From Verrucomicrobiales bacterium (GTDB taxonomy: Bacteria > Verrucomicrobiota > Verrucomicrobiia > Verrucomicrobiales > DEV007): 37,345 nucleotides of DNA. This document shows positions 1,961-37,345 of the stretch, piece by piece. Both the position numbers and the translations under genes were made by a program. The number at the start of each line of letters is the position of its first letter. Within the stretch, counting starts at the first letter, position 1. The stretch is taken from contig JBLHKS010000051.1 in assembly GCA_047620505.1 (NCBI GenBank), positions 1-37,345 on the forward strand, in the 5' to 3' direction. Under the pieces are notes generated by a model, which did not search any database, had not been told where the DNA came from, and saw nothing but the letters and a program-made list of their open reading frames with translations.

Positions 1961-1964
<4 letters not shown>
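777..1964 (-). CDS. Secreted hypothetical protein with an N-terminal signal peptide and no recognised domain.
   Basis: 395-aa ORF. The N-terminus [21 protein letters not shown] is signal-peptide-like. The start overlaps the stop of the upstream DUF1501 gene by 4 bp (1961..1964). Confidence 0.6.
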
Positions 1965-3316
<1,352 letters not shown>

Positions 3317-3330
3317 AGTATTATTAGTCT

Positions 3331-8247: not shown

Positions 8248-8361
8248 GAATCGCCCATTTCCAACATCCGCTTCACTTGAAAGCCCCTCCATGCCGCTCT
8301 CGTGTATCGCGGTGAACCGCCAACTCCGGTTCGGGCCCCATTTTTAACGATCTCTAGAGGA

Positions 8362-15082: not shown

Positions 15083-16189
15083 ATGCCCGGCTTTTACGAA
15101 TTTTTCGCCGGGGGCGGAATGGCCCGATTGGGACTTGGGAAATCCTGGACCTGTCTCGCCGCGAACGATTTCAGCCCGAAAAAAGAAGCTGCCTATCGGG
15201 CGAACTGGGGCGATGCCGATTTTTTGCCAGGTTGCATCAGCCAGATCCGCACGGCTGATCTTCCGGGGGAGGCTGATCTCGCTTGGGCTTCGTTTCCTTG
15301 TCAGGACCTTTCGTTGGCCGGAAAAAGGCGCGGAATTTATTCGGAACGCAGCGGCGCTTTCTGGCCGTTCTGGGAATTGATACGTGAGCTGGAAGGGGAG
15401 GGGAGAATGCCGCCGGTGATCGCCCTGGAGAACGTGACCGGGATGCTGTCCGCGAACGGTGGGCGTGATTTTGCTGACGTCTGCACGGCGCTGGGTGAAG
15501 CCGGATTTCGCGTCGGCGCAGCTGTGATTGACGCGAGTCGATTCGTTCCGCAGTCGCGCAAACGAGTTTTCATCGTCGCGACGACCCGCCCGATCCCGGC
15601 TGAGATCGAGTCGTCGAGCTTCGATCCCGACTGGCATCCGGAAGCGATGCGGCGAGCAGCTGCTGGCCTCGAAAACTGGTTCTGGCTGGCTCTGAGGGCC
15701 CCGCGAAACCGAGTGGCGGCGCTTGCAGAATTGATCGATGCAGAAGATTCGACCGATACTCCTTGGAAATCAGAATCGGATCTCGAACGCCTGCTTTCGA
15801 TGATGTCCAAGCTGAATCGCGAAAAAATCCAGATCGCAAAGCGCGAAGGGAAGAGGATAGTGGGCACGCTCTACAAACGGACGCGGCCAGACCCGAATGG
15901 TGGTCGAATTCAACGAGCCGAAGTCCGCTTTGATATCGCCGGTTGCCTGCGGACGCCAGTGGGCGGGTCGAGCCGGCAGACGATCGTCGTCATCGAAAAC
16001 GGAGAGGTCAGCGCCCGGCTGCTTTCCGCGCGCGAAGCGGCTCGCCTGATGGGAATTCCGGACGGCTATCGGCTTCCAGAGCGATACAACGATGCCTACC
16101 ACCTTGCCGGGGATGGGGTCGTGGTGCCGGTGGTTCGGTATCTGGCGAAGCGGGTGATCGAGCCAATTTTAGAATGCGAACCGATCTGA
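15083..16189 (+). CDS. DNA (cytosine-5)-methyltransferase, Dcm-like. It appears to be an orphan.
   Basis: 368 aa. Motif I is FYEFFAGGGMARLGL. Motif IV is SFPCQDLSLAGKRRG. Motif VI is ENVTGML. Motif VIII is QSRKRVFIVA. The C-terminus has LSAREAARLMGIPDGYRL...GDGVVVPVV. No adjacent restriction endonuclease or vsr-like ORF was seen. Confidence 0.85.
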   Translation: MPGFYEFFAGGGMARLGLGKSWTCLAANDFSPKKEAAYRANWGDADFLPGCISQIRTADLPGEADLAWASFPCQDLSLAGKRRGIYSERSGAFWPFWELIRELEGEGRMPPVIALENVTGMLSANGGRDFADVCTALGEAGFRVGAAVIDASRFVPQSRKRVFIVATTRPIPAEIESSSFDPDWHPEAMRRAAAGLENWFWLALRAPRNRVAALAELIDAEDSTDTPWKSESDLERLLSMMSKLNREKIQIAKREGKRIVGTLYKRTRPDPNGGRIQRAEVRFDIAGCLRTPVGGSSRQTIVVIENGEVSARLLSAREAARLMGIPDGYRLPERYNDAYHLAGDGVVVPVVRYLAKRVIEPILECEPI

Positions 16190-19770: not shown

Positions 19771-20436
19771 GTGACGTTCATCGCCGAAGAGAACCAGATT
19801 CATATCGACATTCCGGATTCAGTTCGGACTCTCGCTTCATTCCGCAATTGGGCGCGTTCGAGCGATTTCCCGGCTGAAGGAAGGATCTGTTATCTCGGAC
19901 AAGTCTGGATCGATATGAGCAAGGAGCAGCTGTTTTCGCACAATGGAATTAAGACGGAGTTCGGAGCGGTTTTGCACACTCAATCAAAAAACGAACGAAG
20001 CGGTCGCTATTTTTGCGACGGAGCCCGGCTTAGCAACGCCGTCGCCGACCTCTCTGCGGTTCCAGATGGAATGTTCGTCTCCTGGCAGACGCTTGAAGCC
20101 GGCGGCGTTCAGCTGATCGAGGGTGCCGGGAGTGGATTTGTTGAGTTGGAAGGTTCGCCTGACATGACGCTTGAAGCGGTGAGCGACAGCAGCGTGGAAA
20201 AAGACGCCGTCGAGCTGCGCGATCTCTACTGGAAGGCCGGCGTCACTGAATATTGGTTGATCGACGCCCGCGATCAGCCGCCCCAATTCACGATTCTTCG
20301 TTGGGAACCGGACGGCTACGTCGCTGTTGAGCCTACGGACGGCTGGCGACGTTCCGATGTGTTTGCCAAGGAATTCAAATTGGATCAAACCGATGATCCT
20401 GGCGGAAACCCGGAATTTCGGCTCGAATCGCGCTGA
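19771..20436 (+). CDS. Uma2-family (DUF820) putative endonuclease.
   Basis: 221 aa with a GTG start. The C-terminal core AVELRDLYWKAGVTEYWLIDARD matches the Uma2 EYW(L/I)(I/V)D motif. Confidence 0.65.
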   Translation: MTFIAEENQIHIDIPDSVRTLASFRNWARSSDFPAEGRICYLGQVWIDMSKEQLFSHNGIKTEFGAVLHTQSKNERSGRYFCDGARLSNAVADLSAVPDGMFVSWQTLEAGGVQLIEGAGSGFVELEGSPDMTLEAVSDSSVEKDAVELRDLYWKAGVTEYWLIDARDQPPQFTILRWEPDGYVAVEPTDGWRRSDVFAKEFKLDQTDDPGGNPEFRLESR

Positions 20437-22880: not shown

Positions 22881-23684
22881 ATGCCCAACACATCTGAGAT
22901 CTCAAACATGGCGGTGTTCTGCGATTTCGAGAACATCGCTCTCGGCGTGAACGAGGTAGGGTTCTCCAAGTTTCAGATCGACAAAGTCCTCGAGCGATTG
23001 CTCGTGAAAGGCAACATCGTCGTCAAAAAGGCTTACTGCGATTGGTCAAGATACGAATCCTTCAAACGCTCGATGCACGAGGCCGCTTTCGAGCTAATCG
23101 ACATCCCGCACGTTCGGCAAAGCGGAAAAAACTCGGCCGATATCCGCATGGTTGTCGATGCACTCGACCTCTGCTACACCAAAGCTCATGTTGACGCCTT
23201 CGTTGTTGTCAGCGGCGATTCGGACTTCTCTCCGCTGGTCAGTAAACTTCGTGAGAACAACAAAGTCGTTATCGGAGTCGGCGTGAAACACTCCACCTCG
23301 GACCTGTTGGTTGCGAATTGCGACGAGTTCATTTTCTACGATGAATTGGTCGAGAAAAAGCCTCGTCGAGCCGCAAAGAAGGCTGGCAAACCGACCACGA
23401 AAAAGTCTGCCAGAACCAAATCAGCTGAAAACATCGACGACGACGGAATCGAGCTCGTCGTGTCGACGATCGACAGTCTGATCGATGAAATCGGCGGTCG
23501 GAGTTCGCTCTGGGGCTCGATGGTCAAGCAGGCGATCAAACGTCAGCGTCCCGGCTTCAACGAACGCGCTCACGGCTTCAAGTCCTTCAACGCGATGCTC
23601 GAAGTCGCGCGAGATCGCGGCCTGATCGCGCTTAGCCCAGACGAAAAATCTGGCGGCTACGTGATCGAAACGGCGGGTGATTGA
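22881..23684 (+). CDS. NYN-domain ribonuclease-like protein with a C-terminal OST-HTH/LOTUS domain.
   Basis: 267 aa. The NYN core is AVFCDFENI...KKAYCDW...NSADIRMVVDALDL...VVVSGDSDFSPLVSKLRENNKVVIGVG. The OST-HTH-like C-terminus is LVVSTIDSLIDEIGGRSSLWGSMVKQAIKRQRPGFNERAHGFKSFNAMLEVARDRGLIAL. The start may instead be the internal Met at 22908. Confidence 0.75.
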   Translation: MPNTSEISNMAVFCDFENIALGVNEVGFSKFQIDKVLERLLVKGNIVVKKAYCDWSRYESFKRSMHEAAFELIDIPHVRQSGKNSADIRMVVDALDLCYTKAHVDAFVVVSGDSDFSPLVSKLRENNKVVIGVGVKHSTSDLLVANCDEFIFYDELVEKKPRRAAKKAGKPTTKKSARTKSAENIDDDGIELVVSTIDSLIDEIGGRSSLWGSMVKQAIKRQRPGFNERAHGFKSFNAMLEVARDRGLIALSPDEKSGGYVIETAGD

Positions 23685-23689
23685 CCATC

Positions 23690-25150
23690 TCAGGTTCCGC
23701 AAAAAGTCGCCTCCACAATCTCGCCGGCGCTTGGAGCGGCCTCGAATTCGGCAAACTCGCTTTTCTCCGCAAACGGCTCCTTCAGGACTTCGTTCAGCCT
23801 GTGAAACAGCTCGAAATCTCCCTGGTTCCCGGTGCGGATCGCTTCCTCAATTTGATGATTGCGCGGAATGAACACCGGATTCGACCGCCGCATCAACGCA
23901 AGCGCCTCGTCTTGATCACTGCCCGCCATCCGCGCTCGCCATCGCTCCAACCAAGCAACAATCGCTTCCGGCTGATTGAACAGTTTGATCACTTCCGCGT
24001 CTTCAGAACTTCCGTGAGCGCTCGTTAGATGTCGAAAAACCAAAGTGAAATCGGCCTCGCCTTCAGCCATCGCTTTGAGCAGAGACTCCACGAGTTGCCA
24101 GTCGTCTTTTTCATCGCCCTTCAATCCGATCTTCGCCGTTAGTCGTTCTCGGAGCGCGCTTTGGTGCAGATCGGGAAACCGCTCAAGCTCGGCCTCTGCA
24201 ATTGCTACGGATCGATCCGGATTGTCGTCCAGCAACGGAAGCAGGGTCTCCGCAAGCCGCGTCAGGTTCCATTGAGCGATTGGTCCCTGATTCGCAAAAG
24301 CATAACGCCCATTCTGATCGATTGAGCTGAATTTTTTCGCAGGATCGTAGTCATCGAGGAAAGCACACGGCCCGAAGTCGATCGTCTCGCCTGAGACGTT
24401 CATGTTGTCCGTGTTCATCACTCCATGGATGAAACCGAACTGCATCCAGTGGGCAATCAGGTCGGCCTGACGACCAATCACGCCGCTTAGCAGAGCTTGG
24501 TAAGAGTTCTCGGCTTCCCTCGCGTCGGGAAAATGACGGTCGATCACGTAATCGGCGAGAATTCGGAGATTCTCTTTGTCATCCCGAGCTGCAAACCATT
24601 GAAAAGTCCCAATTCGAATGTGAGAACGCGCGACCCGGGTGAAAATTCCGCCAGGCTGCATTCCCTCACGCGCGACGTGCTCTCCGCTCGTCACAGCCGC
24701 CAGCGCCCGAGTCGTCGGAACCCCAAGAGCTGCCATCGCTTCAGAAACGATATACTCGCGCAAAACGGGCCCTAACGCGGATCTTCCGTCGCCTCTCCGT
24801 GAAAACGGAGTCGGCCCCGAGCCCTTCAACTGGATGTCATACCGGACGCCATCTTTTCCTATGACCTCGCCAAGCAGAATCGCCCGACCGTCTCCCAATT
24901 GGGGCGAGAAGCCGCCAAACTGATGTCCCGAGTAAGCCATCGCCAATGGATCAGAACCTTCGGGTGTCTGATTTCCTGAAAGCGCCGCGAGACCTTCCAG
25001 CGATTCCAGCTTCTCCGCGTCTAGTCCAAGCTCTGCGGCCAGCGAATGATTAACCCGAATGATTGTCGGATTCGTGACGGGAGTTGGTTGGACCGGAGCA
25101 TAAAAAGCCTCCGGAAGCCGAGCATAACTGTTATCGAATGGAAAGAGCAC
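23690..25150 (-). CDS. selO: Protein adenylyltransferase (AMPylase) SelO/YdiU, UPF0061 family.
   Basis: 486 aa with a GTG start. It has the N-terminal FDNSYARLPEAFY and the kinase-like core GHQFGGFSPQLGDGRAILLGE...QLKGSGPTPFSRRGDGRSALGPVLREYIVSEAM. Its start codon directly abuts the stop of the upstream giant gene (25150/25151). Confidence 0.9.
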   Translation of the reverse strand: MLFPFDNSYARLPEAFYAPVQPTPVTNPTIIRVNHSLAAELGLDAEKLESLEGLAALSGNQTPEGSDPLAMAYSGHQFGGFSPQLGDGRAILLGEVIGKDGVRYDIQLKGSGPTPFSRRGDGRSALGPVLREYIVSEAMAALGVPTTRALAAVTSGEHVAREGMQPGGIFTRVARSHIRIGTFQWFAARDDKENLRILADYVIDRHFPDAREAENSYQALLSGVIGRQADLIAHWMQFGFIHGVMNTDNMNVSGETIDFGPCAFLDDYDPAKKFSSIDQNGRYAFANQGPIAQWNLTRLAETLLPLLDDNPDRSVAIAEAELERFPDLHQSALRERLTAKIGLKGDEKDDWQLVESLLKAMAEGEADFTLVFRHLTSAHGSSEDAEVIKLFNQPEAIVAWLERWRARMAGSDQDEALALMRRSNPVFIPRNHQIEEAIRTGNQGDFELFHRLNEVLKEPFAEKSEFAEFEAAPSAGEIVEATFCGT

Positions 25151-28100
25151 TCAGTCTCCTTGCCTGACTTCGCCTTCGATATCCACTGGTAATTTATCCG
25201 CGCCCTTAGCTTTCTTAATCTTAATCTTCTTTTTCTTCGGCGCGCCAGCAGCTGCTGACTTCGATTTGGACGCTTCCTGAACGGGAACGACCTTGATTTC
25301 CACTTCCACTGGCACAGCGCGAAGTCCGGAAATCACCTTTTCCAGCTTTGCGACGGTCTCGTCTGTCAGCCCAGTCGATTGCAAGGATTCGCCGATCCGG
25401 CTCAAACCGTCGTTGAATTCGCTCAGCTGAGCTACCACGCGCGTTACCGGGTCGGACTCGTCGCCACCCGCCAGCAGTTGGTTTTTGTTGAATGCCTTGT
25501 GGATTTCCGCCCATCGAGTCGCCTCGGTGTCGGTCAAAATCCCTTCAAGCTCCTTGAATTTGAGTAGATTCGCTTCAGCGCCCGTAGTGAGCGTCTGACT
25601 CTCGTTTTCGTAGTGCGATACGATGAGATTCTCGACTTCCTCGTCCGTCATGATCGCCAATACTTTTTCAGCGATCCGGCTCATGTTACGATAACTGCCT
25701 TGTAGCTTGAACGAAGGCTCCGTTCGATACGCGTCTTCCATCGCGGCAGAGCGAATGTATTCCAGATTCACGCGTAGAATCGTATCGCGAACACGCATCA
25801 ATTTTTTGGTCACCGAAACAAGCTCGTCGATCTCTTCTACCGAATAGTTGCCTTCAAAATCCGCGCCTTCCTGTGATCCCGTCTCCGCGATCTTCATCAC
25901 CGCATAAATATCTTTTTGGCTTCGGCTTGAGAGCTTGCTCAGCACCGAATTACTGGTTAGCGAGTTCTCAATATAACTATCTTTGAACGAACCTTCGTTC
26001 TCTCCAATAATATCGCCAAGATTGTAGGTATCGGCGCGGTTGGCGAGCATATCAGGAATCTGGAATCGCCCGCCGCTCTCGGTATAAGGGTTGCCAGCCA
26101 TCACCACTGCGACTTTCTTCCCGCGCAGATCGTAAGTTCTGGCTTTGCCTTCCCAGACGCCCTCAATTTTGCGTTGAGCGTCGCAGAGCGAAATGAATTT
26201 CTGAAGAAACTCAGGATTGCAGTGCTGAATGTCGTCAACGTAGATCATTACGTTGTCGCCCATTTCTAAGGCGAAGTTCAACTTGTTGACTTCGGCGCGC
26301 GCGCTGGCGTTTGGCGCTTCTGTCGGGTCAAGCGAGGTGACTTGATGGCCAATCGCTGGCCCGTTGATTTTCACGAACGTGATCCCCAATCGGTTGGCCA
26401 CGTATTCCATCAGTGTGGTTTTGCCGTAGCCTGGCGGGGAAACGAGCAACAGCATGCCCATTCGATCGGTTCGCGTATCGGCTCCAGCGGTTCCGAGCTG
26501 TTTGGCCAGATTGTCGCCGATCATCGGAAGGTAAACTTCGTCGAGCAACCGGTTGCGCACGAAGGCGCTCATAACAGTTGGTTTAAACTCGTCCAACCTC
26601 ATTGACTCACGCGCCTCATCGATCAGGCGAGATTTCAATTCATGGTAGGCTTCAAAGCGAGGAACAACCTCCGATTCGAAATTACTCAAACGAGTCAGAA
26701 ATTCGTTGTAGTCCAACAAATATCCGCCTCCAGCAATTCGCGAATGATCGCCCAGTAAACCATCCAGCTCCGCGCGGGTCGCCGCATCGACGACTTCGCG
26801 TTGCTCGAATCCACCACGCATTTCGTGCGCCGCCGCCTCAACCACGACGTCTTCCGTGACGTCGCCACCAGCGCTTCCTCGCATCCAGTCGGAAGTCACC
26901 TGGAAACGCCCAGCCGCGTCGTCTTCGAGTTCGCTTACAGCCTCCTGAAATTTCGACTTTGACCGCGTTGAAGCGAGTTTCCCGTGAAACTCCTTCACCA
27001 CACGTGCAGCCTCTGCGGAAACGACCACGCCACCTTCTGACGAAAGCTCATCCACCAGATAATCGGCTGCTCCGGACTTATGGCGCGCGTCAAATAGCCC
27101 AGTCTGCTCAAGAAATACACCAAGATGCTCCGCCAACTCTTCTTCGTAATCAGCATCGAGGTTCCCGCCGGCGCCTCCAAAAGCATCGCGCATTTGGCCG
27201 AACGATTTCAGTTTGGCGGCAAGCCGCTGCTTTTCGGCTCCCTCAAACCATTCCCAAAACACGAGACCGCACGCCCGCGAGGTCATTGAATGCCTTAGAC
27301 GCCCGGCCCTTTGATGAATCGGGAGTAACGCACTCAAGAGTCGCTCGGTATCGTGGTCGTTGACTCCTTTGACGTAGCCCTCAGCGTAGCGAGATGACAT
27401 GAACTCTTGAATCATTTCGATCGAAACCGCCTCGCTATCAGCATAACGTTTTTCACTGAGCATCTGAAAGGCGAGATACTCAGACCGGTATACATTTTGA
27501 TTTTCGGAAATGATTTCCTGATCCCAAACGGAGCGAGTTTGTAGAAACTCTGGGTCAACGATCGTTTCATAAAAGGCAGTGCCTGCCAGATGAAACGCCA
27601 TTTCGCCGTCCCGCGGAATTACAGTGAGATCGAGTTCGCGTGTATTGACTGAGAACTGGTGATTTCCTAAGCGAATGACATCTTTGCCGCCGATGAACAG
27701 TTCCTTGCGATCTTTGAGCTGCCGCACCGCGTCCTCTCGCATCGTCTTCAGACGCGTCTGGACATCGCCCGATTTGACGGTGTCGCCCAACTCCGTGAGA
27801 TTTTCGACAATGTCACGAACCTTGTCGACCATCAGGTCGCTGGCAAAGTAGCTGTTGATCTCGGCGATCTCTTCAAACCCGGACACGCGCCGCACAATAC
27901 CGCCTAAAATCCGGTCGGCGGACTTTAGCAAAGTGTCGGCTCGCTTGTTTCGAGACTCCAGCAGCTGCTGCTTGCGGCTTTCGAACGCGCCGTAAATTTC
28001 TTCCCGTTTTTCGCCGAGCTGAGCGACGTAATCATCAAACTCGCTGAATTTACCTTCCAGCTCTTCGATCTGCACCATTAGGCGCGTAAGCTGTTCGTCG

Positions 28101-30229
28101 CACTTTTCTGGCGTATCGCAAACATCTAAGGTGTTGACCACTGTTTGAGCGATCAACTTCATCTGCGCCCCGAATTGGCCTTCCGCTTCGACTCGTCCGA
28201 GCTCCTGCCGGCGCTTGCGAACCTGCGCTTGAACCTGGTTCAAACTCGCATAAATGCCCGAGATCGCCTCAGTGATCTTCGTCGCTTCCGTCGCGTCTGT
28301 GATCTGGAGATTCCCGACGATATCGATCAGCATCTCCAATTCGCCGCCAGCCTCGGCCAAAGCGTCCGAAACTGCGGTGGCTTCAGTAACTTTGGTGAGT
28401 TTTGCCGCCGCATCCCTTTGCTCGGTGATCTTCGCTTGATAAGGATCGAGCGCCTCGGGCTTCAGGAGGAAACTAACGCAACTCTGGGACGTCTTTTCTG
28501 TCGCCTCAGAAATTTCTGCTTCTAGTTTATCAACTAAGTCGTTATCAATATAGCGGAGGTCCCGCAACGAAATTACCTCGCCGCGCGCCCCTCGCAGATC
28601 CGCCAAGTGATGAACAAATCCGAGAATGTCATCCGGAGCTTGGTGATCCGCGGCTGACGTTGCCTTGCGGGCTCGATCGTGTGCGCGTTTGGTTTCCTCC
28701 TTTGTCGTCTTGCGAATCCGTTGAACCTTATCGAATTCCCCAATCGCAGCCTGGGCAGCCTGGTTGACCGCCATCAACGGCGTTTTCAGCTCGGCGGTCT
28801 CGGAGTTGCCAACCCAGAAATAGCTATCGACGATATCCCCGGTTTTCTTGACCAGATCGACATAGAGATCGGCGTAAGTATCGTCCTTGCCGATCAGATT
28901 GAGAACCTCATGGCACTCCGCCATGCCGCGCACAATATCGGCGTTGCCTATTTTAAAGAGATAGCTGTCGGTCTGCGCTGGCTCGCTGGCACCTTCCGTC
29001 GTAAACGGAGTTTGCCAGACCTGAATCACGTGATGTTTCTGCGGCTGATCCTCCGTGCGAAAATAGAACAGCTCACCATCCGGGAAAACGCAATAGCCGT
29101 TGCAGATGATCGGCGTATCCAGCGTTTGCGCGATCAAGTTGTAGGCCATCAACGTGTAGGTCCCACTGGCGCGGTTGTAGAAAACGTACAACGTGTCCTC
29201 GCCGTTCGATGAAGCAATTCGACGCTCGAATCGCATGTCGGTTAGCCCGCTGTCGAAAACCTTTGTCTCGCCGGTTTGAAGGAGATAGCCATTGGAAACC
29301 ACGATCCCGTGATCGTCCGGAAGCAGAACACACGAATCCGCTATCGTATCGATTCGAGTAACCTTCTTCGTCTTCTCGTTAAAAGCGAGATATCGGAATT
29401 CCTGCTCTTGATAAGGCCGAACTTTGATCAATATCAAGCTGCCAACAATCGTGTAGAGAATTTCGGCATCGTCCAGGGTCTGATCGACATTGTCGACAGG
29501 CTCGGCATAGATCCCTTCGCCCGTTTCCGTGTTGTCTTCGATCTTTACAGTTAAATCGCCTCCGACAGTCTCGATGAAAACGCGGTCCTCGATCGAAATG
29601 TGCGGATGATCGCCACCGCGCTGCATGTCGCGGTGTGCACGCTTCCATTCGAACTCGTGCTGTGGCGGAAACTTGTATTCGTGATCGAAGCGATTGCCCA
29701 GATACTCAAGACGACCATCGCCAGGCATCAGGAATTTGAACGCCTTAATGTCTTCAACAGAGGCACCGGTGCGGAAAGCCACGTAAAGATGGACGCCCAG
29801 GACCATGAACTTCACGAAAATCGTTTCGCGATAGTATTTGTAGAGATAGGCAAACTCCTCTGCAAATCTCTCCTCGCCTTCAATCTCCCAAGTCGTCGGA
29901 ACAAAAGTGTGTCCGGCGTTTTCGTAATGATACGCCGAAAATACATCGGCAAGGTCGGTTGTAGCCTTGAGCCCAAGTTGAACGTTATACCCGAAGAGGA
30001 ATTTTCCGCCGCCGATCGACACCATGTCGCGCGGCGTGCAGTTGTGGGCGGTCGTTACCCGCTCGGTCGCGACGAGGCTGCTTTCGATCGCGCCGAAAAC
30101 CGCCTGCCGATCCCGGTTGAGCGTCCCAAGACGCTCGCGCAAGTCGGAGGCGTGGGTGTTGAGCCGATTGCGGATTACCTCGTAGGCTCCGCCTTCCAGC
30201 TTTGCGCCAGCTGTTGATTCGTCAGGCAA
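25151..30229 (-). CDS. Giant (1692 aa) multidomain protein with a single MoxR/dynein-type AAA+ ATPase module. It has an N-terminal beta-rich domain and a long central coiled-coil/helical region.
   Basis: Walker A is LLLVSPPGYGKTTLMEYVANRLG. Walker B is NVMIYVDDIQHC. The sensor-1-like element is VAVVMAGNPYT (the A-x-N-P pattern of the MoxR/McrB/dynein clade). The N-terminal ~430 aa have no recognised motif. There are long E/K/Q-rich helical stretches, and the tail is lysine-rich (KKKKIKIKKAK). No second P-loop is present. Confidence 0.8.
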   Translation of the reverse strand: MPDESTAGAKLEGGAYEVIRNRLNTHASDLRERLGTLNRDRQAVFGAIESSLVATERVTTAHNCTPRDMVSIGGGKFLFGYNVQLGLKATTDLADVFSAYHYENAGHTFVPTTWEIEGEERFAEEFAYLYKYYRETIFVKFMVLGVHLYVAFRTGASVEDIKAFKFLMPGDGRLEYLGNRFDHEYKFPPQHEFEWKRAHRDMQRGGDHPHISIEDRVFIETVGGDLTVKIEDNTETGEGIYAEPVDNVDQTLDDAEILYTIVGSLILIKVRPYQEQEFRYLAFNEKTKKVTRIDTIADSCVLLPDDHGIVVSNGYLLQTGETKVFDSGLTDMRFERRIASSNGEDTLYVFYNRASGTYTLMAYNLIAQTLDTPIICNGYCVFPDGELFYFRTEDQPQKHHVIQVWQTPFTTEGASEPAQTDSYLFKIGNADIVRGMAECHEVLNLIGKDDTYADLYVDLVKKTGDIVDSYFWVGNSETAELKTPLMAVNQAAQAAIGEFDKVQRIRKTTKEETKRAHDRARKATSAADHQAPDDILGFVHHLADLRGARGEVISLRDLRYIDNDLVDKLEAEISEATEKTSQSCVSFLLKPEALDPYQAKITEQRDAAAKLTKVTEATAVSDALAEAGGELEMLIDIVGNLQITDATEATKITEAISGIYASLNQVQAQVRKRRQELGRVEAEGQFGAQMKLIAQTVVNTLDVCDTPEKCDEQLTRLMVQIEELEGKFSEFDDYVAQLGEKREEIYGAFESRKQQLLESRNKRADTLLKSADRILGGIVRRVSGFEEIAEINSYFASDLMVDKVRDIVENLTELGDTVKSGDVQTRLKTMREDAVRQLKDRKELFIGGKDVIRLGNHQFSVNTRELDLTVIPRDGEMAFHLAGTAFYETIVDPEFLQTRSVWDQEIISENQNVYRSEYLAFQMLSEKRYADSEAVSIEMIQEFMSSRYAEGYVKGVNDHDTERLLSALLPIHQRAGRLRHSMTSRACGLVFWEWFEGAEKQRLAAKLKSFGQMRDAFGGAGGNLDADYEEELAEHLGVFLEQTGLFDARHKSGAADYLVDELSSEGGVVVSAEAARVVKEFHGKLASTRSKSKFQEAVSELEDDAAGRFQVTSDWMRGSAGGDVTEDVVVEAAAHEMRGGFEQREVVDAATRAELDGLLGDHSRIAGGGYLLDYNEFLTRLSNFESEVVPRFEAYHELKSRLIDEARESMRLDEFKPTVMSAFVRNRLLDEVYLPMIGDNLAKQLGTAGADTRTDRMGMLLLVSPPGYGKTTLMEYVANRLGITFVKINGPAIGHQVTSLDPTEAPNASARAEVNKLNFALEMGDNVMIYVDDIQHCNPEFLQKFISLCDAQRKIEGVWEGKARTYDLRGKKVAVVMAGNPYTESGGRFQIPDMLANRADTYNLGDIIGENEGSFKDSYIENSLTSNSVLSKLSSRSQKDIYAVMKIAETGSQEGADFEGNYSVEEIDELVSVTKKLMRVRDTILRVNLEYIRSAAMEDAYRTEPSFKLQGSYRNMSRIAEKVLAIMTDEEVENLIVSHYENESQTLTTGAEANLLKFKELEGILTDTEATRWAEIHKAFNKNQLLAGGDESDPVTRVVAQLSEFNDGLSRIGESLQSTGLTDETVAKLEKVISGLRAVPVEVEIKVVPVQEASKSKSAAAGAPKKKKIKIKKAKGADKLPVDIEGEVRQGD
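25246..25257. repeat. Exact copy of the palindrome CAGCAGCTGCTG.
   Basis: Lies in the C-terminal tail of the giant AAA+ gene (SAAAGA on the minus strand). Confidence 0.9.
27959..27970. repeat. Exact copy of the palindrome CAGCAGCTGCTG.
   Basis: Lies inside the giant AAA+ gene (KQQLLES). Confidence 0.9.
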
Positions 30230-30231
30230 AT

Positions 30232-32301
30232 TCAGAGGACCTTGTTAGCCTTTTGGTCGGCGACGCCGAGGCGCTGAGCAGCACCCAGAAGTCCGTTCAG
30301 CGTGCGACCGGTTGTCGAGTCGTTGTTGGCAGCCAGCATTTTGCCAAGAACCGCAGCCACGGTCAGATTCTTTAAGTCCTCACTGCTGATTCCGAACATA
30401 TCGACCCATTCCCGGATCTGCGCCTTGAATGCGTCCGGATCGCCGCGGAATAACGTATCTTTGATCTCGGTTAGGGTATCCGAATTGTCGAGCGCGCGGT
30501 CAACTTGCTTGCCAGCCGTTATGGCTTGAGTAATCTTGTCGAAGAACGTGCTTTCGCCGCCCACGATATCGATGTTTGCGGTTTTGAGGGCTGCCGCAAC
30601 CACGGTAGCTTGTTCGGCTGCGATATCCTTTTGAGCTTCGATCTCAGCGAGGTCGATCTGGCGTTCCTTGTCGAGCTTGAGCTTGAATTCTTCGTGGCCT
30701 TGACCGGCCTCTTCGAATAGCTTCATGGCGCCGGCCTTCTCGGTGATTCCGTCGGCATCAGCAGTTGCTTTGGCTCGAATTCCCTCCGCCTCCGCTCTTG
30801 CTTGTGCCTCTGTTCCTTCAGCGTTTGCGTTTGCTTTAGCGCGGATGACTTGAGATTCACCTAGCCCAGCAGCTGCTGTCTCGGCAGTGACACCCTCGGC
30901 GAGCATTTTCTTCGCTGCCGACTCTTTCTCGGCTGATTCCTGGTTCGCTTCAGCCGTGATCACGATCTCCTGCGCATGAAGCTCGGCCGATTGCTTGCTG
31001 GCCTCAGCCGCTTTCACATGCTCATAGGCTTCTTCGTCTGCCTTCAACTGTGCAGATTCCTTTTGTGCTTCAGCGTCGCGAACTTTGACCAACATCGCCT
31101 CCTGCGCCGTCTTCTCAGCCAGGGTAATCGCGACTTGCTTCTCTCGATCCGCGCCCGCGAAGGCCTCGGTATCTTTGATCTTCTCTTGCTCGATCACGAC
31201 CATCTTTTCGACCGCGACGCGCTCTTTGATCACGTCCTGAATGTTTTTCTTCTCGATTTCGACGGCTTTCTCCTTTTCGATGGACTTGAGAGTCGTTACC
31301 CGCTCACGATCGATCTCCTCCAATTTCCGATCCCTCTCAACACGCTCAAGTTCGACCCCATCGGTTCGTTCTTTGTTCCGCAGCGCGACAATCACCTGGC
31401 GCTCTTTGTTTTGTTCAGCGATCTGAATTTCCTCATCAGCTGCGATCCGAGCTTGCTCGGCTCGTTGACGGTTTTCCTCTTGGACCTTCTTCGTCTCGGC
31501 CTGCTCTCGCGCCTGAACTGAATCGACTTCCCGCTGTTGCTTCGCTTCGGTTTCTGCCAGCTGGCGTTCTAACTCTAGAATCGCTTCACGAGCTTCAACG
31601 TCCTGCTGTTTGATGACTTTTTCCTTATCTCGCTGAATGTGGTTAGCGAGTTTGGCTTGCGTTGCCGTTCTCTCTGTAATCTTCTTGATGCCTTCCGAAT
31701 CGAGGATGTTGTTCGGGTCTAAGGAATCCAGCGGAGTCTGCTCAAGGTCGTCAATCGCGGCGTCCTCCAGCGAGAAACCATTCAAGTCAGTTCCGATCAG
31801 TTTGATGATTTCATCGCGGAAACTGTCGCGCTCTTCGTAGAGTTCGGTGAAATCGAAGCGCTTTCCGATTGTCTTCAAGGCTTCCGAGAATTTGGCTCCG
31901 AAAAGCGCCTCAAGTTCCTTTTGATCCGAGGCGCGAACGCAGCCAATCGATTGCGCTACTTTTTTGACGTCGGCGTCCGTTGGATTGACCCTGACAAAGA
32001 AGGCGACTTTGATATCTGCCCTCATATTGTCTTTGCAGATCAGGCCGTTATCGCCTGCTCGGTCGATCTCGATTCGTTTTACCGAGATATTGATCATTTC
32101 GGCCTGATGGAATACGGGAATGACGACTTTTCCGGTAAATGACACCTGTGTTCCGCCCTGGCCGGTGCGCACCAGCGCGAGTCCTTGCGGGACTTTGCGA
32201 TAGCACTTTACGACCAGCACAAACAATCCTACGACCAAGATTAGGAATACGACGACAATGACGACGCCGATGCCGCCTAGCATTTCAATTAGTTCACTCA
32301 T
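30232..32301 (-). CDS. Flotillin-family SPFH/band-7 protein (YqiK/FloT-like) with an extended coiled-coil C-terminus.
   Basis: 689 aa. It has an N-terminal TM helix (VVIVVVFLILVVGLFVLVV), an SPFH core (VRTGQGGTQVSFTGKVVIPVFHQAEMINISVKRIEI...DIKVAFFVRV) and a long Glu/Ala/Lys-rich coiled-coil flotillin tail. It overlaps the upstream NfeD-like gene by 8 bp and ends 2 bp before the giant AAA+ gene. Confidence 0.85.
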   Translation of the reverse strand: MSELIEMLGGIGVVIVVVFLILVVGLFVLVVKCYRKVPQGLALVRTGQGGTQVSFTGKVVIPVFHQAEMINISVKRIEIDRAGDNGLICKDNMRADIKVAFFVRVNPTDADVKKVAQSIGCVRASDQKELEALFGAKFSEALKTIGKRFDFTELYEERDSFRDEIIKLIGTDLNGFSLEDAAIDDLEQTPLDSLDPNNILDSEGIKKITERTATQAKLANHIQRDKEKVIKQQDVEAREAILELERQLAETEAKQQREVDSVQAREQAETKKVQEENRQRAEQARIAADEEIQIAEQNKERQVIVALRNKERTDGVELERVERDRKLEEIDRERVTTLKSIEKEKAVEIEKKNIQDVIKERVAVEKMVVIEQEKIKDTEAFAGADREKQVAITLAEKTAQEAMLVKVRDAEAQKESAQLKADEEAYEHVKAAEASKQSAELHAQEIVITAEANQESAEKESAAKKMLAEGVTAETAAAGLGESQVIRAKANANAEGTEAQARAEAEGIRAKATADADGITEKAGAMKLFEEAGQGHEEFKLKLDKERQIDLAEIEAQKDIAAEQATVVAAALKTANIDIVGGESTFFDKITQAITAGKQVDRALDNSDTLTEIKDTLFRGDPDAFKAQIREWVDMFGISSEDLKNLTVAAVLGKMLAANNDSTTGRTLNGLLGAAQRLGVADQKANKVL
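30867..30878. repeat. Exact copy of the palindrome CAGCAGCTGCTG.
   Basis: Lies inside the flotillin gene (TAAAGLG). Confidence 0.9.
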
Positions 32302-32998
32302 TCGGTTCGATCTGGTTCGGTTGGTTTATTTGGATAAGTTTTTCCACTGCCGCGGATTTACGAACGGAAAAAAAGCCGGTTTCAGGATCTTCAGAAACCA
32401 CTAGGGCCTCATCGCCCTTGATCAATGACTCTTGATCTTCGGTTGCCCTGACATTGATCAGAAAGGTGGCACCGTCGCGTTCGACCTCTGCTTGCCCGCT
32501 GTCCGGGGTCACTTTCAATGACCGAATGGTGCAGGCACGACCCACGATTGGCTCATGGGTATCTCCATCTGCGTTCAAAGCCACGAAGAGACGCTTCAGA
32601 GGAGCGGTAGTGATTTTTGTGAGGATCGCGCTGATAAACAGGTTTGCGGTGAAGATCGCTGCAGTGATGAGAATCAGGCCACCGCCATTAAATATATAAT
32701 TCCCAAGGATCGAAATGGACCAAAGGCAGAGTACAAGGACGCTAATAACTATAAGCGCGGGAACCTGGCCAAAATTCAAGAATCGAAGGACGGCCATTCC
32801 GATACCGCCTCCGCCGGTTCCGGCGGTATCAAGGTCTGGATCCACATCGGCGTCGACGTCCGCATCAACATCGAAATCGAGACTGTCGACGCCGATCGCT
32901 CCCAAGATAACGATCAACCAGTAAACAACTACGGCCCCGAGAAGAATCGTAAGGGGTAGGTTCTGGCTTTTCAGGGCTTCTGTCAGGATCAAAGTCAT
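32294..32998 (-). CDS. NfeD/YqiJ-like membrane protein, the usual flotillin operon partner.
   Basis: 234 aa. It has N-terminal TM helices and an acidic DVDADVDADVDPDLD repeat. A central hydrophobic block is followed by a C-terminal soluble beta-rich domain (IVGRACTIRSLKVTPDSGQAEVERDGATFLINVRA), consistent with an NfeD OB-fold. Gene order matches yqiJ-yqiK / nfeD-floT operons. Confidence 0.6.
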   Translation of the reverse strand: MTLILTEALKSQNLPLTILLGAVVVYWLIVILGAIGVDSLDFDVDADVDADVDPDLDTAGTGGGGIGMAVLRFLNFGQVPALIVISVLVLCLWSISILGNYIFNGGGLILITAAIFTANLFISAILTKITTAPLKRLFVALNADGDTHEPIVGRACTIRSLKVTPDSGQAEVERDGATFLINVRATEDQESLIKGDEALVVSEDPETGFFSVRKSAAVEKLIQINQPNQIEPNE

Positions 32999-33066
32999 GT
33001 CTGTGGCGGCGTGACTTTAGAAGAAATGGGTGGAGAACCGGATTACAATTGCTAGACGAGTTTGTA

Positions 33067-35646
<2,580 letters not shown>

Positions 35647-37345
35647 ATGAAAACCCTGCTTGTTTCGATCCTCCTCGGCCTTTCGGCCATCGCGCTTCAT
35701 GCGCAAGACGCCCCGCCGCTCAAAGATCTGAACGGATTCTTTCCGTTCGAGGTTCCAGAAACTCTCGAGGCCTGGGAGGAGCGCGCGGCCGATCTTCGCC
35801 AACGCGTGCTCGTCGCCAATGGTCTCTGGCCGATGCCGGAGAAAACTCCGCTGAACCCGGTCATCCACGGCAAATTTGAGCGCCCGGGCTTTACGGTCGA
35901 GAAGGTCTACTTTGAGAGCTATCCCGGATTGTTCGTCACTGGCCTGCTTTTTCGACCTGAGAATCCGCCGGAGGGAAAACTGCCCGCTGTGTTGAGTCCG
36001 CACGGTCACGGCGGTCGACTTCAGGACCACGGCGTGGAGGGCGTCCTCAAGCAGATTGAGGGCGGTGGCGAGAAATTCAAGGAGTCAGGCCGGATGCCGA
36101 AAGTCGCTCGCTGCGCGACGTTGGCGCGGCTGGGTTGCGTTGTTTTTCTCTACGACATGTTTGGTTATGCCGATAGCAATCAACTTTCACGCGGGCTTGC
36201 TCACGGATTCAAGAAACAGCGGCCAGATTTCGAGGGGAAGGACAGCTGGGGGTTGTTCAGCGCGCAGGCGGAAATGCGGATGCAGTCGATCTTCGGTCTG
36301 CAAACCTGGAACTCGATCCGTGGTCTGGATTTTCTCGAAAGCCTGCCTGACGTAGACCCAAAACGCATCGCGGTGACCGGCGGAAGCGGCGGAGGAACGC
36401 AGACGATCATGTTGTGCGCGATCGACTCGCGGCCGATCGCGGGTTTCCCAAACGGGATGGTTTCCAGCGCGATGCAAGGCGGTTGCACCTGTGAAAACGC
36501 GAGTCTTCTGCGGATTGGAACTGGCAACGTGGAACTCGCCGCGCTGTTCGCACCTAAGCCGCAAGGGATGACCGCGGCTAACGACTGGACCAAAGAAATG
36601 CTCGTGCCCGGGAAAGGTTTTCCGGAATTGCAGAAGCTCTACGGGATGTACGGAAAAGTGGACAACGTGATCTGTGAAGACCTGCTTCATTTTGGGCATA
36701 ACTACAATTATGTGAGTCGCGCGGTCATGTATTCGTGGTTCAACAAGCATCTCGACCTCGGTCTTGAGGAGCCGATTGTTGAGGAGGATTTCAAGCTGCT
36801 GACGGCGGAAGAGCACGCTGTCTGGACTGTCGAGCATCCTGAGCCAGAAGGCGGCGATGAATTCGAGCGGAATCTAACGAATTGGATCGCGGATCAGGAC
36901 CAGCAGCTGCTGGACGCGATGACGGAAGGCGAGCGGCGCGAGACGGTTCGTGCGGCGTGGCGGACGATGATCGGTGCGAGCGATTTGAGCGGCGCAGTTG
37001 CGAGTTCGTTCTCTGCCGTGGGTTCGCCAGAAAAAACTACCCTTCAAACTGATCCGAAGTCCCCGTCTTTCTCGGTTTTTACGGCGAAACCAAAGGGGGA
37101 TTTCAAATTCACTGTTGTCTGGACGCACGAAAAGGGGAAGGACGGCTTATTCAAAGGGGACGGAACTCCAACTCCGGCCGTCCAGGGAATTCTCGACCGT
37201 GGAGGCCGAGTGATCACGGCGAATCTCCATCTTCAAGGGGACGAAATCAACGAAACGCCAGTCGTGGCCAACCCACGCGAATCTGCGAGCTACACGCACG
37301 CCTACAACGACTCGGTTTTCGCCGAACGAGTCCAGAATATTCTCG
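35647..37345 (+). CDS. Secreted alpha/beta-hydrolase (esterase/peptidase-like). The N-terminal ~566 aa are present and the gene runs off the window end.
   Basis: Manual translation from the ATG at 35647 gives MKTLLVSILLGLSAIALHAQDAPP (signal peptide)…RIAVTGGSGGGTQTIM (G-x-S-x-G nucleophile elbow)…HFGHNYNY. There is no stop codon before position 37345. Confidence 0.6.
   Translation, partial: MKTLLVSILLGLSAIALHAQDAPPLKDLNGFFPFEVPETLEAWEERAADLRQRVLVANGLWPMPEKTPLNPVIHGKFERPGFTVEKVYFESYPGLFVTGLLFRPENPPEGKLPAVLSPHGHGGRLQDHGVEGVLKQIEGGGEKFKESGRMPKVARCATLARLGCVVFLYDMFGYADSNQLSRGLAHGFKKQRPDFEGKDSWGLFSAQAEMRMQSIFGLQTWNSIRGLDFLESLPDVDPKRIAVTGGSGGGTQTIMLCAIDSRPIAGFPNGMVSSAMQGGCTCENASLLRIGTGNVELAALFAPKPQGMTAANDWTKEMLVPGKGFPELQKLYGMYGKVDNVICEDLLHFGHNYNYVSRAVMYSWFNKHLDLGLEEPIVEEDFKLLTAEEHAVWTVEHPEPEGGDEFERNLTNWIADQDQQLLDAMTEGERRETVRAAWRTMIGASDLSGAVASSFSAVGSPEKTTLQTDPKSPSFSVFTAKPKGDFKFTVVWTHEKGKDGLFKGDGTPTPAVQGILDRGGRVITANLHLQGDEINETPVVANPRESASYTHAYNDSVFAERVQNIL
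36902..36913. repeat. Exact copy of the palindrome CAGCAGCTGCTG.
   Basis: Lies inside the alpha/beta-hydrolase gene (DQQLLDA). Confidence 0.9.

Follow-up and report, generated by a model that had tools for sequence, protein, structure and literature searches.

A giant MoxR-like AAA+ protein of a Verrucomicrobiales bacterium belongs to the DUF3686-DUF7902-AAA+ family and probably uses ATP to remodel flotillin membrane assemblies, not to repair DNA

The giant protein encoded in the 37,345-nucleotide Verrucomicrobiales contig analyzed here, referred to throughout as the window, belongs to the DUF3686-DUF7902-AAA+ family. The family gene nearly always follows a flotillin gene, and for this reason the protein is more likely to remodel flotillin membrane assemblies at the expense of ATP than to act in DNA repair. 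The family has already been described by comparative genomics and the window protein is one more orthologue. It comprises 3,000-4,000 clusters at 90% identity, with proteins of about 1600-1900 aa, is patchily distributed over many phyla with some copies on megaplasmids, and retains 40-60% identity between phyla over 1,600 residues, with invariant motifs. Query coverage was 97-100% in nearly all of the 120 matches listed, and one precomputed Pfam set was common to all 120. The possibility left by the original prediction, that the whole protein might belong to a characterised family of known function, was not borne out, as the family is catalogued and named and literature searches found no experimental work on any member. 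Thousands of database entries bear the name 'DNA repair ATPase', a misnomer supported by neither domain content, gene context nor the searchable literature.

The gene, annotated by NCBI as 'DNA repair ATPase' and encoding a 1692-aa DUF3686/DUF7902/AAA+ protein, occupies positions 25151..30229 of the minus strand, reading from a TTG start at 30229, which is 2 nt past the TGA of the upstream gene, to a TGA stop at 25151-25153. Its 1692 codons run without interruption, GC by codon position is even along the whole gene, an identical 1692-aa product is present in the JGI set (P0001, 100% identity and coverage), and homologues from over 3,100 clusters at 90% identity can be aligned to the protein over its full length. 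An open frame of this size is far beyond chance and the protein is real. In at least nine phyla, orthologues align collinearly with it along about 95-100% of the length, which rules out a frameshift or the fusion of several genes that had been raised as a possible source of error.

The original prediction had left the first ~1200 aa unassigned and had recognised no family in the first ~430 residues, and both statements have to be withdrawn. Pfam DUF3686 (PF12458) matches aa 29-471 (nt 28817-30145, minus strand, as are all features below; E 6.3e-182) with its profile fully covered (positions 1-448 of 448), and Pfam DUF7902 (PF25472) matches aa 592-676 (nt 28202-28456; E 1.4e-24). The profile searches and segment-wise structure prediction that had been proposed as checks returned DUF3686, DUF7902 and AAA_5 together with a propeller model for the N-terminus. 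Two AlphaFold2 models were available, with mean pLDDT of 84.2 and 83.6, and in the latter, covering aa 1-1010, a predicted N-terminal helix (aa 15-45, 30095..30187) stands ahead of a predicted beta-propeller (aa 51-406, 29012..30079) of ~28 strands in ~seven blades, which forms the DUF3686 core and is supported by Pfam, model and Foldseek. The N-terminal segment YVFYNRASGTYTLMAYNL quoted originally is present, at aa 348. Foldseek matched the propeller model to WD40/DCAF1, paraoxonase, oligopeptidase and clathrin/IFT-A propellers; a protocoatomer-like reading of the clathrin, IFT-A and Elp1 matches, with TM-scores of 0.07-0.15, was not adopted because the propeller alone explains them. A long-helix region follows (aa 423-845, 27695..28963; Pfam and model), with 13 modelled helices, three of them of 48-58 residues, and with DUF7902 inside it; this region also gave a weak coiled-coil-type match to LmuB in PADLOC. 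Beyond it the AlphaFold2 models place a small beta-sheet domain (aa 851-889, low confidence) and a helical domain (aa 893-1150), together spanning 26780..27694. Residues 850-990 are conserved, and residues 990-1200 are the most variable stretch of the protein. Transmembrane segments were not predicted anywhere in the chain, and the protein is soluble and cytoplasmic.

The AAA+ module (aa 1227-1470, 25820..26551) consists of a MoxR-like alpha/beta core and the start of a lid, and it is single and near the C-terminus, as originally proposed: no further GK[ST] motif occurs in the protein and the AlphaFold2 models hold one alpha/beta nucleotide-binding domain. The three motifs first read from the sequence are likewise in place, namely Walker A SPPGYGKTT at aa 1264-1272 (26414..26440; motif match and orthologue conservation), Walker B IYVDDIQH at aa 1329-1336 (26222..26245; DDIQH core invariant in the orthologues examined) and AGNP at aa 1378-1381, where the sensor-1 strand ends and from which a segment placed by conservation runs to the arginine-finger motif ANRAD at aa 1396-1400 (26030..26098). 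Between Walker B and the sensor-1 strand two modelled strands and conservation point to a pre-sensor-1 beta-hairpin, KIEGVWEGKARTYD (aa 1354-1367, 26129..26170), a predicted feature as expected for the MoxR clade. An invariant QGSYR (aa 1510-1514, 25688..25702) is the putative sensor-2 motif by its likeness to the 'G.S.R' of MoxR, and a lid with a conserved C-terminal helical extension is placed by model and conservation at aa 1464-1637 (25319..25840). Conservation of Walker A, Walker B and the arginine finger had been suggested as a check and is complete, with SPPGYGKT, DDIQH, AGNP, ANRAD and QGSYR invariant across 113 sequences and in the Pseudomonas, Streptomyces, Proteus, Deinococcus, Firmicutes, Bacteroidota, Desulfobacterota, Kiritimatiellota and Planctomycetota orthologues; the ninth residue of Walker A, outside the invariant SPPGYGKT core, differs in one Streptomyces orthologue. 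The module is predicted from this intact and invariant site to be catalytically competent, and its ATP turnover may be slow because Walker B reads DD, not DE.

Several observations bear on the clade to which the module belongs. Pfam AAA_5 matches along nearly its whole length and scores 27.6-30.5 bits, where the cut-off is 22. The closest solved structures to the module are MoxR proteins, and the pattern 'AGNPYTESG..F.IPDML.NRAD' appears to resemble the MoxR motif. The MoxR-specific Pfam AAA_3 did not match the giant protein even at E <= 10, and PDB sequence matches were restricted to the Walker A region. PF00004 covers profile positions 1-69 of 131 only, and the second region of homology that marks the classical AAA type (Cdc48/Vps4/FtsH) is not found. 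With regard to the helix-2 insert and pre-sensor-2 insert of the MoxR clade, a conserved 18-residue loop (GH.V.SLDP) was seen after beta2, with no hairpin predicted in it. As the original prediction held, the architecture is neither that of a classic ~300-aa MoxR protein with a VWA partner nor that of a multi-AAA chain, since the protein has 1692 aa and one module, and no VWA domain was found in it or in its conserved neighbours.

The C-terminal tail (aa 1641-1692, 25154..25309) is modelled and aligned as two short strands around a disordered linker, and the poly-Lys run KKKKIKIKKAK noticed at the outset does lie inside that linker (aa 1665-1675, nt 25205-25237; motif match). It is not a conserved feature: among Verrucomicrobia the linker is basic, acidic or almost missing, and Firmicutes orthologues are without the whole C-terminal extension. 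A nucleic-acid- or membrane-binding role for the poly-Lys run was rejected as a family feature because the run is not conserved.

The giant gene is the third of a module in which a YqiJ/NfeD-like membrane protein and a YqiK-type flotillin come first. The flotillin gene (30232..32301), directly upstream and ending 2 nt ahead of the giant-gene start, encodes 689 aa comprising a TM segment at the N-terminus, an SPFH domain, a coiled coil rich in Glu and Ala, and a C-terminal domain; source names for this partner are 'flotillin' and 'YqiK'. The first gene (32294..32998) overlaps the flotillin start by 8 nt and encodes a 234-aa YqiJ/YuaF (NfeD-like) membrane protein with ~3 TM segments and a weak Pfam YqiJ_N match. 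PDB sequence searches with the two proteins returned nothing useful, and Pfam Band_7 was below threshold for the window flotillin and matched one of 19 flotillin orthologues, so homology was settled by hhalign, which aligned the flotillin with residues 21-422 of E. coli YqiK (E 2.7e-41) and its neighbour with E. coli YqiJ (probability 96.7%, E 4e-10). Of 63 related loci whose upstream flank reached 2.6 kb or more, 60 had a same-strand flotillin gene directly upstream, and the YqiJ-like gene was found in 48 of 59. Three loci (L028, L039, L046) lacked flotillin despite full flanks, and no alternative conserved partner was seen in them. The same gene order recurs in pQBR103, a Streptomyces plasmid, the Proteus mirabilis chromosome and a Deinococcus megaplasmid. 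CesT/Tir and PspA genes lie immediately upstream in 14 Bacteroidota loci (16 when PspA alone is counted), and pQBR103 also carries the two upstream; no PspA or CesT homologue was found in the 37-kb window. XRE/S24-type and CII-like regulators are divergent and upstream in some clades, and small nuclease-like genes are inserted at some loci, being variable rather than conserved. Scans for promoters and terminators gave nothing above chance and do not delimit a transcription unit. Exactly this operon has been described from comparative genomics by Ravi, Anantharaman et al. (mSystems 2024; PMC11237479) and assigned there to 'sub-membrane dynamics'.

Gene neighbourhood and domain architecture are the basis of the functional reading, which we hold at slightly better than even confidence: the giant protein would be a MoxR-like ATPase that remodels flotillin/YqiJ membrane scaffolds in envelope stress. 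The AAA+ modules would form a ring, as MoxR proteins do, with the helical regions acting as arms or linkers that hold the propellers against flotillin/YqiJ assemblies on their cytoplasmic side; in loci that also encode PspA, its polymers may be within reach of the propellers as well. Hydrolysis of ATP would drive the remodelling, assembly or dismantling of the membrane scaffolds under envelope stress, and we infer ring formation, flotillin contact and direction of remodelling alike. The link to membrane stress comes from CesT/Tir-PspA upstream in Bacteroidota and pQBR103. Topology was counted for the reading (the giant protein without TM segments, the flotillin with one at its N-terminus, the YqiJ-like protein with ~3), as was the precedent of SPFH scaffolds paired with AAA+ machines; counted against it were the normal use of a VWA partner by MoxR ATPases, absent here, the DD of Walker B, the failure of the window flotillin to reach the Band_7 threshold (though its homology to YqiK is clear), and the three fully flanked loci without flotillin.

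An alternative explanation, which we regard as improbable, could be that the protein works like Vps4 and disassembles PspA, the ESCRT-III homologue of bacteria, and that flotillin and YqiJ serve only as the membrane platform recruiting PspA. This would account for the operon that PspA and a CesT/Tir-like protein share with the gene in Bacteroidota and pQBR103, for the placing of that operon among PSP systems by Ravi et al. (PMC11237479) and for the label 'phage shock protein A' on the JGI homologue P0060, a label probably due to the helical region, but PspA adjoins the gene in 16 of 80 genome loci compared with 60 of 63 for flotillin, the window encodes no PspA, and the ATPase resembles MoxR and not the classical Vps4 type of AAA, which carries an MIT domain. 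An anti-phage or conflict system, in which the propeller would act as sensor of an invader and the ATPase would set off a membrane response via flotillin, appears somewhat less likely again and was rejected for want of PADLOC support and of any phage homologue. In PADLOC-DB v2 none of the three module proteins had a significant match, the giant protein giving weak partial matches only (LmuB coiled coil at 2.4e-6, IetA and mad8 P-loops at >1e-3) and the flotillin-like and YqiJ-like proteins none, and no homologue was found in phage genomes. The patchy spread over many phyla, the megaplasmid copies, the divergent XRE/S24-type and CII-like regulators and the nuclease-like insertions would suit such a system, but the insertions are not conserved, the system has no effector domain, and 40-60% identity over 1,600 residues with invariant motifs is unusual for fast-evolving defence genes. 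That the protein is a DNA repair ATPase is very unlikely, even though NCBI and Pfam name the family 'DNA repair ATPase' or 'ATPase involved in DNA repair', the window has the gene for the NAD-dependent ligase LigA a short way upstream, and RuvB and MCM are among the Foldseek matches: domain searches found no DNA-binding or nuclease domain in it, and a repair role hinted at by the LigA neighbour was rejected because LigA (0 of 80) and the window's other neighbour SelO are missing from 80 related loci, save one unrelated SelO fragment at L041. An assembly or annotation artefact joining several genes, for which unusual length is the sole argument, has practically no chance of being correct and is already refuted by collinearity, given thousands of collinear 1600-1900 aa orthologues, complete genomes among them, an uninterrupted frame and uniform GC by codon position.

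If remodelling of flotillin assemblies is accepted as the preferred reading, a bolder and distinctly tentative extension is that bacterial flotillin (SPFH) cages have in this family their first dedicated regulator that consumes energy, a homo-oligomeric 'mini-midasin' in which a MoxR-type ring, with a long helical linker and N-terminal propeller instead of a VWA partner, would grip and remodel YqiK/YqiJ assemblies. SPFH scaffolds would in that event be served as ESCRT-III is by Vps4. With 1,600-1,900 residues, invariant motifs and flotillin linkage over at least nine phyla, the ATPase gene is an obvious handle on the role of bacterial flotillin and on how large flotillin oligomers are built up and taken down, and tractable hosts exist in Proteus mirabilis and in P. 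fluorescens plasmid pQBR103.

The protein can be compared with several known systems. MoxR proteins such as CbbQ, NorQ and RavA have about 270-500 aa and a separate VWA/MIDAS partner, whereas the giant protein has about 1,230 residues ahead of its module, no VWA gene nearby, Walker B DD instead of DE, and no match to AAA_3. Midasin (Rea1/Mdn1) and dynein concatenate six AAA modules per chain, whereas the giant protein has one, so oligomerisation would be needed, and its binding head would be the N-terminal propeller rather than a MIDAS or microtubule-binding domain; the resemblance to midasin and dynein is an analogy and not a demonstrated relationship. SPFH scaffolds are repeatedly paired with AAA+ machines, as in HflK/C-FtsH, prohibitin-m-AAA protease and SLP2-YME1L. 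The ATPases of these pairs are membrane-anchored classical AAA proteases, whereas the giant protein is soluble, MoxR-like and without a protease domain. Cages of HflK/C and of QmcA-YbbJ are cited in PMC13086221. With the E. coli yqiJ-yqiK and B. subtilis yuaF-floT operons the module shares its two upstream genes, which are homologues of YqiJ and YqiK; the E. coli operon is without a third ATPase gene and its YqiK has 553 aa compared with about 690 aa for the module flotillin. The closest known system is the CesT/Tir-PspA-YqiJ/YuaF-flotillin operon with a 'beta-propeller + coiled-coil + AAA+ ATPase' of Ravi et al. (PMC11237479), which gives the ATPase no clade assignment and reports no experiments, and whose Dokdonia example is matched gene for gene by the Bacteroidota loci here. 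Like that operon, the window has a YqiJ/YuaF-type multi-TM protein upstream, identified by hhalign to YqiJ; compared with the full form it is without the CesT/Tir-PspA dyad and the divergent repressor, and since CesT and PspA are missing it represents an 'abbreviated' form of the operon, a form also mentioned in PMC11237479.

The giant protein is an unexceptional member of a large, uncharacterised family previously noted in the literature, and the interest lies in the function of that family rather than in this one member. No experimental study of it was found in the literature searched by Pfam names, by NCBI product name with flotillin or PSP, and by MoxR or AAA with flotillin, YqiK, or YqiJ. 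Its gene, at 25151..30229 on the minus strand, runs for 1692 codons without interruption from a TTG start, 2 nt past the TGA of the upstream gene, to a TGA stop, and the product is identical to a 1692-aa entry in the public JGI set (P0001). The original prediction was correct in its observations: SPPGYGKTT at residue 1264, IYVDDIQH at 1329, AGNP at 1378, KKKKIKIKKAK at 1665, and an aromatic, beta-rich stretch at aa 348 are all in place, and a motif scan of the protein found no second P-loop, with just one nucleotide-binding alpha/beta domain across both structure models. A transmembrane scan found no hydrophobic stretch of membrane-spanning length. Fusion of several genes, raised as a possible artefact, is excluded by a large family of full-length members of 1600–1900 aa. 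Clusters at 90% identity numbered 3,112 in one sequence search and 4,181 in another, with relatives at 37–60% identity in Verrucomicrobiota, Planctomycetota, Bacteroidota, Desulfobacterota, Kiritimatiellota, Omnitrophota, Firmicutes, Actinomycetota, Deinococcota, and, within Gammaproteobacteria, Proteus, Vibrio, Photobacterium, Halomonas, and the Pseudomonas plasmid pQBR103; phage genomes searched yielded no homologue. The propeller alone as query gave 730 clusters at 50% identity, in which it was N-terminal in full-length members (~1600–1900 aa) and the shorter entries look like fragments.

The N-terminal sequence, thought to be unassigned, matched Pfam DUF3686 at aa 29–471 (E 6e-182) and DUF7902 at aa 592–676 (E 1e-24), which places the first two thirds of the protein in families that are catalogued but uncharacterised. 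AlphaFold2 models of aa 1–1010 and aa 990–1692, built from input alignments of 113 sequences (two distant clades), had mean pLDDT of 83.6 and 84.2, respectively. The predicted order is an N-terminal helix (aa 15–45), a propeller region (aa 51–406) of ~28 strands in roughly seven blades, a long-helix region (aa 423–845) of thirteen helices including three of 48–58 residues, a small, low-confidence beta domain (aa 851–889), a helical domain up to ~aa 1150, a hairpin and long helix (aa 1152–1209), the AAA+ core (aa 1227–1470), a conserved helical extension up to aa 1637, and a tail (aa 1641–1692) with a disordered linker between two short strands. For the N-terminal model, Foldseek hits comprised WD40, paraoxonase, oligopeptidase, and clathrin/IFT-A propellers; since overall TM-scores were low, they are read as indicating a beta-propeller and nothing finer. 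The poly-Lys tail did not hold up as a conserved element binding nucleic acid or membrane, as its linker is disordered (pLDDT <50) and varies among close relatives, where it is basic, acidic, or almost missing; Firmicutes orthologues lack the entire C-terminal extension.

Placement of the AAA+ module near the MoxR clade was a good call, but full MoxR membership is unsupported because a VWA partner is absent, the MoxR-specific AAA_3 profile was unmatched, and the helix-2 insert is ambiguous. In Pfam, AAA_5 matched over positions 2–126 of 139 and PF00004 over its first half only, and sequence likeness to solved classical AAA proteins was confined to the Walker A region. Walker A, Walker B (DD), the sensor-1 Asn, the ANRAD arginine, and QGSYR, a putative sensor 2, were invariant in 113 sequences, and the same ATPase motifs were invariant in orthologues from ten loci that together cover nine phyla, which argues for a working ATPase.

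Linkage to flotillin and YqiJ genes has persisted through transfer among nine or more phyla. The gene directly before that of the ATPase on the same strand (30232..32301) encodes a protein of 689 aa, which combines a single N-terminal TM segment with a coiled coil rich in Glu and Ala, is named “flotillin” or “YqiK” in public sources and, in profile comparison, is homologous to E. coli YqiK, a flotillin (E 2.7e-41). Before it, also on the minus strand (32294..32998), lies the gene for a 234-aa protein with ~three TM segments, homologous to E. coli YqiJ (probability 96.7%); its gene overlaps the flotillin gene by 8 nt, and 2 nt separate the flotillin gene from that of the ATPase. Of 80 related genome loci, 63 had sufficient upstream sequence, and in 60 of these a flotillin gene was directly upstream on the same strand; a YqiJ-like gene was also present in 48 of 59. 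The same order occurred in pQBR103, a Streptomyces plasmid, Proteus mirabilis, and a Deinococcus megaplasmid. Comparative genomics by Ravi, Anantharaman et al. (PMC11237479) had already described a CesT/Tir-PspA-YqiJ/YuaF-flotillin operon encoding an ATPase with beta-propeller, coiled-coil, and AAA+ parts, and reported a wider distribution for abbreviated operons that lack PspA.

The Pfam Band_7 model overlooks the ~690-aa flotillin subfamily: at E <= 0.01 it missed the partner and 18 of 19 aligned orthologues despite the YqiK match; YqiK (553 aa) aligned only at residues 21–422, leaving the partner's C-terminal ~260 residues unaccounted for. AT skew down to -0.30 at 30000–32000 and long antisense ORFs, e.g. 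30976–31521 (+), are probably by-products of Glu/Ala/Lys-rich coiled-coil coding sequence, and at several related loci a ~700-aa antisense ORF was called in preference to the flotillin gene. The flotillin-ATPase junction tolerates insertions up to ~2.4 kb, among them, in some loci, small endonuclease-like genes of the DUF559/Vsr-like type (DUF559 in L040:9524–9946, L041, and L025) or the PD-(D/E)XK type (PDDEXK_3 in L001:9504–9923 and L023) and, in others, unrelated inserts such as an esterase (L053).

Of the remaining neighbours in the window, neither LigA nor SelO was a conserved partner in the 80 loci, where SelO was never seen adjacent to the giant gene. In the window, the SelO/YdiU protein adenylyltransferase gene (23690–25150, minus strand; Pfam E 1e-116) has a GTG start directly after the giant gene's TGA, and this zero spacing may mean co-transcription here. 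The NAD-dependent DNA ligase gene ligA (33067–35382), also on the minus strand, is separated by 68 nt from the YqiJ-like gene downstream of it, and the top minus-strand sigma-70-like site in 23400–35700 was upstream of it (35520–35491) in a scan at chance level overall. A ~160-aa protein weakly matching Phage_CP76 (a CII-like regulator), absent from the window, was encoded upstream of the YqiJ-like gene, mostly divergently, in seven Verrucomicrobiota/Kiritimatiellota loci (L003, L005, L008, L013, L017, L020, L021; e.g. L005:6312–6791, minus strand) and may be a clade-specific regulator. Elsewhere, a DUF1552 gene (1961–3316) adjoining a DUF1592/1588/1585/1587/1595 gene (3331–5757; both minus strand) and a second giant gene (8302–13503, plus strand; 1733 aa) with PSCyt1 (planctomycete cytochrome c), WD40 repeats, PSCyt2 (DUF1549), and PSD1 (DUF1553) are typical of the PVC superphylum and fit a Verrucomicrobiales origin. 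Plus-strand genes for a C-5 cytosine DNA methylase (15083–16189), a Uma2-family endonuclease-like protein (19771–20436), and an NYN-domain protein (22881–23684) lie among metabolic genes.

The family identity, folds, intact active site, and gene linkage are established here. The explanation that we judge somewhat better than an even bet is an ATPase that remodels flotillin/YqiJ assemblies. A Vps4-like role specific to PspA has some basis in 14 Bacteroidota loci, where CesT/Tir-like and PspA/IM30 genes extend the module upstream with a divergent XRE/S24 repressor, in two further loci with PspA and no CesT/Tir, and in pQBR103. On this P. fluorescens megaplasmid (L081, NC_009444.1 84437–97641) the module is fused to a YjfI-PspA-polyamine set (YjfI-PspA-rhomboid-DUF2491-DUF350-DUF1190-glutathionylspermidine synthase), combining on a plasmid two PSP operon classes of Ravi, Anantharaman et al. 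(mSystems 2024, PMC11237479); a phospholipase D gene lies ~9 kb downstream. PspA linkage is, however, much rarer than flotillin linkage, making the PspA-specific role unlikely. A conflict or defence role is more doubtful again, as PADLOC support and an effector domain are absent and conservation is very high. DNA repair, carried by the NCBI name and the Pfam description of DUF3686 (“ATPase involved in DNA repair”), is highly improbable.

For remodelling of flotillin/YqiJ assemblies, functional coupling to flotillin is likelier than the explanation as a whole and the specific mechanics less so. By analogy with MoxR proteins, the AAA+ modules would form a ring, with the long-helix region possibly serving as an arm or linker. 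Under envelope stress, ATP would be spent on remodelling the targets, namely flotillin/YqiJ assemblies at their cytoplasmic face and, where PspA is present, PspA polymers as well. Whereas ordinary MoxR systems have a VWA adaptor, the giant protein has no such partner, and its propeller may grip the target in the adaptor's place.
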